Source: Minisyncoccota bacterium
GTDB taxonomy: Bacteria > Patescibacteriota > Minisyncoccia > 2-02-FULL-40-12 > GWA2-44-9
DNA length: 64,000 nt
NCBI GenBank assembly: GCA_030583765.1
Contig: CP129474.1
Span: 265,709 to 329,708, forward strand
Direction: 5' to 3'
Below are positions 2,951 through 6,616 of the stretch, piece after piece. Position numbers and translations under genes: made by a program. How positions within the stretch are numbered: position 1 is the stretch's first letter; each line of letters starts with the position of its first letter. The notes beneath the pieces were generated by a model. The model was not told where the DNA came from. It saw only the letters and a list, made by a program, of their open reading frames with translations, and searched no databases.

Positions 2951-3051
2951 ATACGTATAGTATACCAAAAAACAAACGGGCACGCCCCTTTGCGTGGCGG
3001 TATTTGACTTATGCGATAAACAGACGTAGTGTATGGCCCGAAGGAGGACGC

Positions 3052-3423
3052 ATGCGCAGTTGGCTTTTGATCGCAGTGCTTGCTCTCGGAGCGCTCTTCG
3101 GATGCACTCCGCCGCAAGAGCCCAAACACCGTCCCCCACAGCCCGTGATGACGCCCACCCCGGAACCGGTGCACTGGTTCCGGATCACGCGCCCCGGCCG
3201 GGAGAACGAGCTCCTAAAGGTCGTGGGGTACATCCGGGTCTACGCAAAGGACGGGTGCGTGACCATCACAAGCGACGCCCCGTTCATAGCCGCCGACACC
3301 AAGTTCCACGAATGTGGAGTCGGGGTCACGAACATCTCCAACCCCAACAAGGTGTCGATCGAGACCGAGCAGCGCCCGGGAACCCCGCAGCCCAAACCGC
3401 CGCAGCCGCTCGAAAAGCCGTAA
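3052..3423 (+). CDS. hypothetical lipoprotein
   Basis: MRSWLLIAVLALGALFGC is a signal peptide with a lipobox (LFGC). Pro-rich C-terminus. Confidence 0.45.
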   Translation: MRSWLLIAVLALGALFGCTPPQEPKHRPPQPVMTPTPEPVHWFRITRPGRENELLKVVGYIRVYAKDGCVTITSDAPFIAADTKFHECGVGVTNISNPNKVSIETEQRPGTPQPKPPQPLEKP

Positions 3424-3560
3424 CTCCCAGCCCCGTGCACGATGTGCTCGGGGCTGTCTTCTTTGCTGGTTACAGATGTCTATAGGGTTACTACACCAGT
3501 CCCCGCCTGCGTATTCCATGGAAGAGTGCCTTACGTCTCAATGATGTACGAAATAGGCGT

Positions 3561-3758
3561 CTAACGATGCTTATCAATCCATCCTGATAAGTAAAATAGT
3601 AATGCCGACGGGATCGCAACAAACAACAACTTTTTTGTTAACTCCTCACTGCAAACAAAACTCGGCCATAAGCAGTTGTAATATCCGTCCACAGAGAGCA
3701 GGATCAGAATCGACGCCAAGACGATAATTGCTAATTGTATTTTTGATATATTGTACAT
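3561..3758 (-). CDS. small two-TM membrane protein
   Basis: 65 aa in an AT-rich segment, immediately downstream of the Abi-like gene on the same strand. Confidence 0.35.
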   Translation of the reverse strand: MYNISKIQLAIIVLASILILLSVDGYYNCLWPSFVCSEELTKKLLFVAIPSALLFYLSGWIDKHR

Positions 3759-3773
3759 AGTGTTTTAGCTTCC

Positions 3774-5021
3774 TCAGGTCTCGGGCGGAAAGTTATCATA
3801 GAGGTTCGCGAGAGCGGCCCCAAATAGCCCTGGCCGCTCCTTTTCAAGCTCTTCCGAGAAATCCCCCCATCCAATCATTTGGTCGTTTGTCTGACTTTCA
3901 ATATACATATTTTCGATATCTTTTTGAGTCAGAACGTCCATAAGAATTCTCATGGCAGCAAAAAATATATCGCTTTGACGATAACTATCAACATTGTAAT
4001 TTGCGATGATCTCATCCTTAATTAGTCTTCGGAGATACATATCGGAGTCAGCTAAGAGCCCTGAAATTATTGTGTCTTCGAGGAGTTCTTTCCTGGAAAG
4101 AAATCTCTTATTACTATTCAATGCAGTTAATAAATCCCTTGCCAAGTGTGTTTTTTGGTCCACCTGAAATTCAAGAGAACTATAAAGAAAGTCGGAAATT
4201 GTCTTGGCACTATCTACAACAAGCTTCGCCTGATGTTTAGCTGGTTTGAGTGAGCGACGATGGCGATCCCCTAGACGATTACTGAGAGAGTCAAGGTTCT
4301 GGATAATACCATTAAACCCTCGGACTAGGCCCTTCATTCCCTCATGCGCATGCTCATCTTCTGAAAGATTTAAGAGGCCTTTCACTTTCTTATAATCCGA
4401 TAGTAGATTCCCAGTCTCCTCCAGTTGCTGACCGGTGCACTGCAGGTACACCTCACCAAGTATGCCTTCGACCAGAGATCGAGCGTTTGTGATTGCGCCG
4501 TCGTAATCACCGGTTTTTAATTTATCATCACACTTTATTATCTGCTCACGAACAAAACTGGAAGAAATTCTTTTCTCGGTGGCAATCTGAATAATTTCTG
4601 TCAGTAGTCGCGCAGCGTAAACGGGTCGCCCAGAAATCATGCGCGATTCAAAAATTTCATAACCATCTCCCTCGAGATGCTGGTTAAAAATCTTTAGGAG
4701 CTTAACGACCTCCTCGGACTTTGTTCGAACAACTGGGTGCAACATCTCGCAAATAAACATCAAAAACTTATCATCAGTGCATGCGAGAAGGTTAATGCGC
4801 TTATCTGTGAATACCCAATTATCTGGCCAATCAGAGTTATGCAACCTGTGCTGAATGATTTCGGCTTCCATGATTGGGAAACGAACATCATATGAAGGCA
4901 TCTCACTCAACCTATACAAACGAGACAGGAAGTCGACCTCACTAAGTCTTCCGTGCCAAGCAAAAGTCGACCCTTGAATTTCATCGATGATATCCCTTCG
5001 AGTTACTTCTGATATAGCCAT
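3774..5021 (-). CDS. abortive-infection (Abi_C/AbiJ-like) protein with HEPN Rx4H motif
   Basis: 415-aa ORF in a markedly low-GC segment. The C-terminal region contains NRLGDRHRRS (R-x4-H, HEPN signature of the Abi_C family), preceded by a long helical N-domain. Confidence 0.5.
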   Translation of the reverse strand: MAISEVTRRDIIDEIQGSTFAWHGRLSEVDFLSRLYRLSEMPSYDVRFPIMEAEIIQHRLHNSDWPDNWVFTDKRINLLACTDDKFLMFICEMLHPVVRTKSEEVVKLLKIFNQHLEGDGYEIFESRMISGRPVYAARLLTEIIQIATEKRISSSFVREQIIKCDDKLKTGDYDGAITNARSLVEGILGEVYLQCTGQQLEETGNLLSDYKKVKGLLNLSEDEHAHEGMKGLVRGFNGIIQNLDSLSNRLGDRHRRSLKPAKHQAKLVVDSAKTISDFLYSSLEFQVDQKTHLARDLLTALNSNKRFLSRKELLEDTIISGLLADSDMYLRRLIKDEIIANYNVDSYRQSDIFFAAMRILMDVLTQKDIENMYIESQTNDQMIGWGDFSEELEKERPGLFGAALANLYDNFPPET

Positions 5022-5063
5022 AATAACCTCCGGTCTCTCTGATGCTTAAAGTCAGCGACCCTG

Positions 5064-5076
5064 GCGGGGCCTGGAC
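5064..5076. repeat. 13-nt copy of tRNA-Gln 3' end (gcggggcctggac), att-like remnant
   Basis: Identical to the tRNA-Gln acceptor/T-stem 3' segment, same orientation, ~300 bp downstream of the tRNA 3' end. Confidence 0.5.
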
Positions 5077-5213
5077 ACAAATCTAACGCTATCTTTTCCC
5101 CACCTTACGCCCTTCGTTTTTCGCATGCAAGACCGCATTCTGGGCCCCAGAACACAAAGCGCCCATACATGGGCGCTTTGTTAAATAGATGTATGTGCTC
5201 ATCGCCTACACTA

Positions 5214-5229
5214 TGCGGGGCCTGGACTC
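5214..5229. repeat. 16-nt perfect copy of tRNA-Gln 3' end (tgcggggcctggactc), att-like duplicate
   Basis: 16/16 identical to 5378-5393 (the tRNA 3' end), same orientation, 149 bp downstream of the tRNA. Confidence 0.6.
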
Positions 5230-5377
5230 ACCTTCCGCTCTCGACCTTGCCGTCGCAAGGTCTCGGCTTCAGGCTCCTGCCCTCGCGGTACCATCTGCTG
5301 ATGATACATCGCTCCGGGCAATGTATGTACCCGCCGCCTACTGGCGCTGGGCACTGCGCTCCTCTTCAGTCGCTTGC

Positions 5378-5447
5378 TGCGGGGCCTGGACTCGAACCAA
5401 GATTTTTAGGGCCAGAACCTAACGTCCTACCATTAGACGACCCCGCA
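5378..5447 (-). tRNA. tRNA-Gln (anticodon CUG)
   Basis: Hand-folded cloverleaf on the minus strand: acceptor TGCGGGG/CCCCGCA, D-arm GTCT…GGAC, anticodon stem TTAGG/CCTAA with loop TTCTGGC (CTG), T-arm CTTGG-TTCGAGT-CCAGG. No encoded CCA. Confidence 0.85.
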
Positions 5448-5530
5448 AGAATCAAACAGCCCCGAGTGTACACGAAAAAGGGGCTTTTTTCAACGGCCCT
5501 CATTTCTGCTCGCCCTAATATTCTGGTACT

Positions 5531-6061
5531 ATGGATGACATGGATACGCTCATTACGTTGAGTGCAGCGCTTGCCCTTGCGACGGTTATTGAATTTTACA
5601 CGCTCGCATTGCGGCTTTCCTTTCATCTCAAATCACGGCACATTCAACAAGATGTGATCCGCATGCCACGCATCCACCACTCCTACCTTGGCATTGCCCT
5701 ACTCATCGTTCACTACGCGTTCTATCCCTCGCTGTGACTTGCGGTCATTGGATGGGCGCTCATTCTCTCTGATGCCTTTCACCACGCCATAGCGCTTCCG
5801 CTCATGAAAAAGCGTGGCTATGACATTGGCATGCGTCGCCATGCACATGCGCACTCCTACTTTAAGCACGGCCTTGCAGTAGTGCTCATTGCAACAGGCT
5901 TGGTAGCATTTCTCACGCCATTCACGCCCGGTTCATGGCTTGTGTTCCCAGGTGTCGCGCTCATTGTTGGCAAAAAAAATGCACGCGCACTTGCACGACG
6001 CATACTAGGAAAGAAGCTCGTGGAGAATCCCCACGTAGCACGCATGCTTCAGAGGTTATAA
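5531..6061 (+). pseudogene. membrane protein reading frame interrupted by an in-frame TGA (or two adjacent small ORFs of 68 and 85 aa)
   Basis: ORFs 5531-5737 and 5804-6061 are in the same frame, separated by a single TGA at 5738-5740. Hydrophobic, TM-like sequence continues straight across the stop (…YPSL*LAVIGWALILSDAF…). Confidence 0.3.
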
Positions 6062-6616
6062 GAGGCGACGTTCGTATGCCCTGGCAACACGAATGAACCA
6101 TGGATCGGCGCTTGGCTCAAAAGGGCGCACGTGGATAGATTTCCACCCCGCCGTATTTGCACCGAGAATATCCGTGAGCACTTGATCCCCAATGTGCACG
6201 CACTGCTGCGGCGCAAGATTCCATCGCCGCTGCGCCACTCGAAAACCGTCAACTGACGGTTTTCTTTTTCGTGCCTGAATGACCGGAATATCAAGAGCTG
6301 CCCCTGCACGAGACACACGACTGCCGATAGCATTCGACAGAACGCACACATTACCACTAAATATGTGTGCCCACTTGGAGAGTATGGGGGCAAGCGAAGC
6401 ATCTACTACACCAGAGCCATAGGCGGCGAGCGTTTGATCAAAGTCAAAACTCACACCACGGATTCCCTGTGCATACAGAGTGTGAGGATCTATGCGCGCA
6501 ACAGATGCGTGGGCCTCCCACGGTCGCAACAACTGCAACGCGCGCTCATTGAGCGCGCGAAAGGGATTGAGATATGGGAGTAGGACAGGGTTCGTGAGAA
6601 AATCGATAGCCACCAT
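6056..6616 (-). CDS. HAD-superfamily IIIA phosphatase (YqeG-like)
   Basis: 186 aa. DxDxT motif (FDFDQTL) and later HAD motifs (SN…, GD). Confidence 0.55.
   Translation of the reverse strand: MVAIDFLTNPVLLPYLNPFRALNERALQLLRPWEAHASVARIDPHTLYAQGIRGVSFDFDQTLAAYGSGVVDASLAPILSKWAHIFSGNVCVLSNAIGSRVSRAGAALDIPVIQARKRKPSVDGFRVAQRRWNLAPQQCVHIGDQVLTDILGANTAGWKSIHVRPFEPSADPWFIRVARAYERRLL

Follow-up and report, generated by a model that had tools for sequence, protein, structure and literature searches.

Tail copies of a tRNA-Gln gene beside a variable cargo slot with an AbiJ-type defence gene in a Patescibacteria genome: probable scars of past integration

The 3′ flank of a tRNA-Gln(CUG) gene was analysed in a 64-kb stretch of contig CP129474.1 from a Paceibacterota genome of the Candidate Phyla Radiation (CPR); the whole stretch is referred to as the window, and all coordinates are its positions. 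Downstream of the gene lie two additional copies of the tRNA 3′ end and, beyond them, a low-GC segment with a gene for an AbiJ-type defence protein. An earlier sequence-only reading regarded the copies as attachment-site (att) repeats left by successive integrase-mediated insertions, and the defence gene as the surviving cargo of a decayed tandem island. We compared the locus with H41 (contig L007 and its duplicates) and H51 (contig L008), both from Hainich groundwater and the only sister genomes in the collections searched. The features of the tRNA gene and its flank, in tRNA orientation, are as follows:

5452–5493, minus strand: tRNA promoter region with a sigma-70-like TTGAAA-17-TACACT at 5465–5493
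5376–5447, minus strand: tRNA-Gln(CUG), predicted by ARAGORN, Rfam tRNA score 59.3 bits; CCA is not encoded
5378–5393, within the tRNA gene: repeat copy 1 (the core), plus-strand text TGCGGGGCCTGGACTC
5320–5377, minus strand: trailer 1, a native-type tRNA trailer homologous to that of H51
5230–5319, minus strand: module A, a 90-nt unit abutting repeat 2, with an orthologue in H41
5243–5262, minus strand: apical 8-bp hairpin of module A, GACCTTGC-GACG-GCAAGGTC
5214–5229, minus strand: repeat 2, a 16/16 match to tRNA positions 57–72
5189–5213, minus strand: truncated second trailer, with copy 2 of a 21-nt repeat (D2) at 5189–5209, identical to copy 1 at 17 of 21 positions
5101–5196, minus strand: unit B, a conserved hairpin and about 50 nt more, orthologous to H51 L008 12202–12297
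5063–5078, minus strand: repeat 3, a 14/16 match overall, with 13 contiguous nt at 5064–5076

The core TGCGGGGCCTGGACTC is the reverse complement of tRNA positions 57–72, that is, from T-loop nucleotide G57 through the last position of the acceptor strand. All three copies are co-oriented with the tRNA, and both extra copies, found exactly where the sequence-only reading had placed them, lie 3′ of it, 164 and 315 nt downstream of the tRNA core, with start-to-start spacings of 164 and 151 nt; the repeat-bounded intervals of 148 and 135 nt contain no genes. The copies start at tRNA positions 57 and 59, both in the T-loop, and end at positions 72 and 71, respectively. A search of both strands of the 64 kb for the core with at most three mismatches yields four matches against 0.73 expected, a number reached by none of 100 shuffled sequences, and no copies of 5′ or 3′ fragments occur near the other four tRNAs of the window; thus, the repeats are real and specific to tRNA-Gln. 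In reaching from the T-loop to the 3′ end, the copies match the canonical identity block of att sites in tRNA genes, where it is common (bioRxiv 10.1101/2020.11.02.365908; PMC4383910).

The segment beyond these repeats contains the following features:

3424–5100: window-specific low-GC variable segment (cargo slot), 1.68 kb
3774–5021, minus strand: AbiJ-type defence gene, 415 aa, identified by Pfam and PADLOC
3561–3758, minus strand: hydrophobic 65-aa open reading frame (ORF), an orphan of doubtful gene status
3454–3521, minus strand: 68-nt relic in common with H41 (L007 10196–10262)
3428–3456, plus strand: hairpin after a convergent 139-aa flank gene (3004–3423)

The low-GC islet noticed from the sequence is indeed the extreme of the window: the GC content of 3424–5100 is 0.435 against a mean of 0.535, the lowest of 624 sliding windows in the 64 kb (z = −4.3), and the GC content at third codon positions is 0.43 in the AbiJ gene against 0.50–0.76 in the neighbouring genes. 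The product of 3774–5021, an Abi-like gene as previously supposed, matches AbiJ_NTD3 of Pfam at residues 3–144 of 415 (3.7e-49), Abi_C/HEPN at residues 210–280 (4.8e-10, above the curated cut-off) and the AbiJ model of PADLOC (6e-20).

All three genomes have in common the block of genes for PrfB, FtsE, FtsX and a HAD protein, a 33-nt promoter stretch that is identical throughout (5452–5484 in the window), and tRNA-Gln. Identity over the PrfB–FtsE–FtsX–HAD block is about 82–83% between the window and the sisters, and 85.5% between H41 and H51. Past the tRNA, each genome has its own cargo. In H51, a 54-nt trailer, a terminator hairpin and about 50 nt separate the tRNA from 2.3 kb of cargo, which comprises genes for a PIN-domain protein and for unknown proteins of 261 aa and 168 aa, as well as a 58-aa ORF. 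A homologue of the 139-aa gene comes next, the homology resuming exactly at the stop codon of that gene in the window. In H41, the tRNA and a terminator are followed by the module A orthologue, one tRNA-tail copy (GAGGACAGGCCCCGCAGCTAA, 19/21) and more than 4.3 kb of cargo (a GNAT-like protein, an unknown, PIG-L, GT4 and another unknown); beyond the cargo come a gene for an extracytoplasmic function (ECF) sigma factor and a diversity-generating retroelement. The 64-kb window encodes no protein of the sister cargos, and the AbiJ gene is missing from both sisters, so that relatives having the same Abi gene at this place without the repeats are not seen here. Since the sisters have unrelated cargo at the same place, the slot beside the tRNA is variable and the AbiJ gene in it is of foreign origin. 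The comparison with relatives proposed from the sequence thus gives different cargo at the same tRNA-Gln, three unrelated cargos in three genomes; a truly empty site was not found among them. Within the species, strains in public Logan assemblies (99.3–100% identical) have the AbiJ islet in every case where the contig reaches the locus.

The databases searched yield three haplotypes of the locus in total. A metagenome scan with the conserved promoter block returned the H41 and H51 contigs again and no new haplotype, the HAD neighbour has only three clusters among 5.8 billion proteins, and a query with a spurious 130-aa ORF spanning the repeats retrieved only H41 and an unrelated tRNA-Gln locus (contig L023).

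Between the tRNA and the cargo, the order in tRNA orientation is trailer 1 (5377–5320), module A (5319–5230), repeat 2 (5229–5214), the truncated trailer 2 (5213–5189), the terminator hairpin with unit B (5196–5101), 22–24 nt, repeat 3 (5078–5063), 42 nt, and AbiJ. Trailer 1 aligns locally to the H51 trailer with a score of 46 against a shuffle maximum of 29 (0/500) and ends in copy 1 of D2 (5321–5341). Module A and repeat 2 are 87.9% identical to H41 over 107 nt, the H41 orthologue of module A (L007 5800–5890) likewise abutting a copy of the tRNA 3′ end. Over 96 nt, unit B has 92.7% identity to H51, where it directly follows the tRNA; the homology ends at ...GGGCGTAAGGTG (5101). This sequence closes unit B in both the window and H51 and is related to ...GAGAGCGGAAGGT, which stands directly upstream of repeat 2 in the window and at the same place before the repeat in H41. 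Repeat 3 lies inside the window-specific segment, 42 nt separating it from the AbiJ start codon. The truncated trailer and then the terminator, which come after repeat 2, are homologous to the sequence behind the intact tRNA of H51. If repeat 2 is a displaced original tRNA end that kept its original flank, this flank should match that of the tRNA in H51, as is seen. Taking all this into account, we hold, with moderate confidence, that the tRNA-Gln(CUG) 3′ flank is a hypervariable cargo slot beside old integration scars.

The same anatomy can be read as a local tandem duplication of the tRNA 3′ end and its trailer, by unequal crossing-over or slippage, followed by decay, in which case no integrase would ever have acted and the slot cargo would vary through unrelated illegitimate or homologous recombination. 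It would explain why the duplicated block of copy 2 reaches past the tRNA into the trailer (D2, 17/21), why the window differs from H51 by a clean 132-nt insertion bounded by the two D2 copies, and why the spacing is regular (164 and 151 nt); the three genomes yield no integrase, the units have no genes, and H41 also has a short 13-nt 5′ duplication. However, units A and B show little similarity outside the core and D2 (score 22, reached by 19 of 500 shuffles), whereas the core copies match at 16/16 and 13/13 positions. The T-loop boundaries of the two fragments are no more than 2 nt apart, and each fragment runs to the 3′ end of the tRNA; such boundaries are expected for site-specific recombination, not for random duplication breakpoints. 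Moreover, the GCGGAAGGT motif upstream of the repeat is not tRNA-derived. We therefore give tandem duplication a real but minor chance as the origin of the tail copies.

The hairpin of unit B (5154–5181) has a 13-bp stem and a weak U-tract, is conserved in H51 and is probably the tRNA terminator, which raises the question of whether the repeats are merely part of a conserved terminator or leader structure. For repeat 2, something of the kind is seen, as it sits in a conserved, strongly folding unit. On the other hand, H51 has an identical tRNA 3′ end, the trailer and the terminator and has no repeat, with one repeat in H41 and two in the window; the repeats lie outside the terminator hairpin, and the other tRNAs of the window have none. 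As a general explanation of the repeats, this is very improbable.

The fold itself deserves attention. The 109 nt at 5214–5322 form one dominant long imperfect hairpin (−52.6 kcal/mol, z = −5.3, frequency of the minimum free energy structure 0.64), and the H41 orthologue of module A and repeat 2 folds similarly well (z = −5.2). The copied acceptor strand pairs with a 19-nt upstream block that is 100% identical in the window and H41, and the apical hairpin, GATCCGAC-GACG-GTCGGATC in H41, keeps its pairing through four compensatory (two-sided) changes. A function of module A with repeat 2, as a small RNA or tRNA-tail mimic transcribed together with the tRNA, or as a folded-DNA or duplex recombination site served by a recombinase encoded elsewhere, would be consistent with these features, with the 88% identity of the unit between species against about 82% for genes, and with the position of a tRNA-tail copy immediately before the cargo in the window as well as in H41. 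We nevertheless regard it as unlikely. As only two sequences exist, a single hairpin carries the covariation, which template-switch repair of palindromes can mimic. The two strands are about equal in folding strength, so that RNA, DNA structure and an artefact of palindrome maintenance may all fit. In the window, unit B with the probable terminator hairpin stands between module A and the cargo. H51 has neither module A nor any tRNA-tail copy and still has variable cargo, and since the whole unit is missing there, an essential role is argued against. Rfam, at permissive E-values, detected only the tRNA in 3000–6500 of the window and in H41, thus no family for module A, and no further copy of module A was found in any locus of the comparison set. 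That 5214–5322 is a functional element rather than a dead scar, either a docking site at which cassettes are exchanged or a structured RNA made along with the tRNA, is in our opinion a long shot; the docking-site reading, if true, would make it a mimic of the tRNA 3′ end where a recombinase acting in trans swaps integrase-less gene cassettes. The conserved structured unit beside the tRNA is the one lead left for follow-up.

Two other candidates were considered for this region and rejected. Module A has neither T-arm nor anticodon-arm geometry, and ARAGORN finds nothing in it, hence it is not a pseudo-tRNA or tmRNA. For a CUGAAGA string in the trailer, no match to a hammerhead was obtained.

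Returning to the integration scars as the preferred reading, the two extra tail copies would be displaced tRNA fragments from past site-specific integrations at the T-loop sublocation. Deletion would since have reduced the bodies of the elements, including any integrase, to 148 and 135 nt, and part of the repeats may be a duplication of such a scar. The slot beyond the scars would turn over independently of them. The cargo may have arrived either through an integrase event whose distal att site has since decayed, or by replacement through recombination in the conserved flanks, with unit B and the 139-aa gene on opposite sides of the slot. The unit identity to the sisters is 88–93%, compared with 82–83% for the flanking genes, and because the unit parts exceed the flanks in identity, the scars appear older than, or independent of, the present cargo. 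The locus is now immobile, as it has no integrase and no bracketing repeats.

Several observations weigh against this reading. The AbiJ gene lies outside every tRNA-to-fragment interval, and thus the scars do not delimit it. The intervals are tiny, with parts more conserved between species than the flanking genes are. The conserved material is nearest to the tRNA and the variable cargo farthest from it, although repeated insertion at an intact tRNA should leave the newest material next to the tRNA, the opposite of the observed order; trailer 1, which adjoins the tRNA, looks native rather than element-derived, judging by its similarity to the H51 trailer. Pfam detects no integrase among the cargo ORFs of the window, H41 and H51. 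No direct distal att copy was found in 3000–5060 at up to 4/16 mismatches on either strand, and local alignment of a 23-nt core to 3429–3773 gave no direct copy either (best score p = 0.27). Scans of IMG/VR for the exact patterns of the module–repeat junction and the tRNA 3′ end gave 0 matches. Finally, since the databases searched give only three haplotypes, the history is under-determined.

In the light of these searches, the claims of the sequence-only reading fared differently. That no integrase remains agrees with the Pfam results and with those of phmmer, where two tyrosine recombinases as queries found nothing among 569 ORFs in the window and the sister loci, a search that is weak for very divergent or serine recombinases. 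The degenerate distal att copy suspected at 3.4–3.6 kb did not materialise; an inverted 10/11 core match at 3496–3506, in the 68-nt relic, is marginal (p ~0.02, uncorrected) and is not conserved in H41. As to the tandem island with the defence gene as its surviving cargo, the co-oriented tRNA copies, the foreign composition and the differing sister cargo speak for it, but the repeats do not flank the gene, no distal copy exists and the intervals are tiny and conserved, so that it is one possible history, not a demonstrated one.

The AbiJ-like protein contains the HEPN motif R249-x4-H254 (R249-LGDR-H254, within Rx4-6H); among 38 homologues, H254 is invariant and R253 nearly invariant. Its AlphaFold2 model has a confidence (pLDDT, predicted local distance difference test) of 88, its matches in PDB are HEPN proteins only, and Foldseek pairs it with the HEPN protein 2hsb at probability 1.0. 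By analogy with the family, AbiJ_NTD3 would act as the sensor of a phage component and set free the HEPN RNase (R249-x4-H254), thereby stopping the growth of the infected cell; the AbiJ mechanism is still unresolved in the literature (PMC13064643). The best homologue is only 58% identical, and the subfamily of about 410 aa to which the protein belongs comes almost only from metagenomes, including CPR genomes (Falkowbacteria, Peregrinibacteria). The homologues occur in unrelated contexts, one of them beside GmrSD, another HEPN gene and two integrases, and in none of the homologue loci examined does the gene adjoin a tRNA. On sequence grounds, the AbiJ gene is a horizontally acquired, lineage-specific, stand-alone putative defence gene. 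Defence islands are recognised by the clustering of at least two systems, whereas here there is a single AbiJ gene, flanked by housekeeping or unknown genes.

Residues 281–415 (window 3774–4178) make up a C-terminal extension of about 135 aa that is all-helical and modelled with confidence. The extension is a conserved feature of the subfamily of about 410 aa, and lactococcal AbiJ and the homologues of about 300 aa lack it; neither Pfam nor PDB has a family or fold that matches it.

The second gene assigned to the islet from the sequence, a small membrane gene, stands only in part: the hydrophobic 65-aa ORF exists, but it has no Pfam or PADLOC match and no homologue among 1.84 billion representatives, and is therefore unsupported as a gene. 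As a partner of AbiJ it was rejected, being an orphan that differs from the small membrane ORF of H51, with no small ORF adjoining AbiJ in the homologue loci. No other ORF of at least 60 aa in the islet has a family match.

In the window as in H41, the variable cargo ends distally at the 68-nt relic. The H41 counterpart of the relic immediately precedes the ECF sigma-factor gene and extends into its beginning; the gene itself is absent from the window, though the 68-nt upstream piece survives there. The distal flank of H41 (L014 12659–17399) comprises this gene and the diversity-generating retroelement (bAvd and a reverse transcriptase).

A number of side observations concern the tRNA gene and its surroundings. 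The anticodon arm (window 5404–5423, 20 nt; L007 5686–5705 in H41, L008 12110–12129 in H51) differs throughout from both sisters, including G37 instead of A37, with 27 nt on its 5′ side and 31 nt on its 3′ side identical; the window type resembles the tRNA-Gln of the unrelated Patescibacteria contig L023. The pattern suggests replacement or gene conversion rather than point divergence. H41 (L007 5592–5660) has a 13-nt copy of the tRNA 5′ end (TTGCGGGGTCGTC) at the original promoter-proximal position, then a 56-nt insert and the intact tRNA, the insert starting with CCTGGCTCCTGCCC, which is almost the reverse complement of GGGCAGGAGCCTGG, a conserved block of module A. This 5′ fragment shows repeated recombination at tRNA-Gln.

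The 19 nt directly 3′ of the tRNA (5356–5374, minus strand), the most diverged part of the trailer relative to H51, form a branch of the assembly graph in three public samples, whose contigs stop at 5375 and restart at 5355; a fourth sample (L004) reads through. The 19-nt gap points to a short alternative allele coexisting after the tRNA. We rejected these contig breaks as proof of excision, as the gap fits such an allele and not an att-core junction.

Two Yanofskybacteria scaffolds with FtsX–tRNA-Gln adjacency (L009 10675–10824; L010 5215–5395) end 76 and 107 nt past the tRNA-Gln; anecdotally, these ends might be assembly breaks at a variable region there too. On the other side of the tRNA, a single T at 5737, where the Logan strains L001, L003 and L004 have C, gives rise to a TGA stop that splits a 173-aa ORF, intact in those strains, into ORFs 5531–5737 and 5804–6061 (plus strand). 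A strain-level pseudogene or a sequencing difference may underlie this, or the ORF may simply not be real.

Islands integrated into tRNA and tmRNA genes, as catalogued by Islander, have a minimum interval of 2 kb and a range of 2–200 kb (Hudson, Lau & Williams 2015, PMC4383910). As in these islands, the locus has an intact tRNA with co-oriented 3′-end copies downstream, forming a block that starts in the T-loop, and foreign low-GC cargo with content differing between relatives. Unlike them, it has no integrase and no distal fragment, its intervals of 148 and 135 nt are gene-free, and the cargo lies outside.

A similar layout is seen in the tandem ssrA islands of Dehalococcoides, where a conserved element-end motif stands by each 20-bp repeat and insertion is in the T-loop (McMurdie et al. 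2011, PMC3146451). Both have tandem direct 3′-end repeats downstream, a region that varies between strains, a non-target motif directly upstream of the repeat, insertion in the T-loop, and some units without integration genes. However, the Dehalococcoides units are multi-gene islands, many with a serine-recombinase module, and their mobility is supported by many strains, whereas here we have remnants of about 140 nt and three haplotypes.

Cis-mobilizable elements (CIMEs) are kilobase-sized and gene-bearing, and are mobilised by a resident integrative element. The units beside the tRNA-Gln gene are like CIMEs and accretion arrays in being bounded by att copies and having no integrase of their own, and unlike CIMEs in that no resident integrative element or integrase is seen here. 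The concept is among those cited in the Dehalococcoides study (PMC3146451). An integron cassette array was rejected: there is no integrase, and the structured unit occurs once, before the cargo and not after it.

The AbiJ protein has the known AbiJ-NTD3 and HEPN architecture, with Emin_1454 as its prototype (Anantharaman et al. 2013, PMC3710099); Emin_1454 itself is among the homologues, with 46% identity over 68% of the query. Like lactococcal AbiJ and this type, it has an N-terminal AbiJ_NTD3 fused to HEPN with Rx4-6H and is encoded by a stand-alone gene. It differs from the prototype in its length of 415 aa, with the additional helical extension, and in the distance to its nearest homologue.

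The tRNA-fragment repeats beside a foreign gene do not alone delimit that gene as an island. What the locus adds is an example, not a principle: it documents turnover of a gene slot and an acquired abortive-infection gene in a very small genome (contig of ~0.6 Mb) of the Patescibacteria, where mobile elements and defence repertoires are poorly charted. Set beside the known systems, the locus is an ordinary decayed tRNA-Gln-linked insertion hotspot, both its scars and its single-gene HEPN defence being of well-known kinds.

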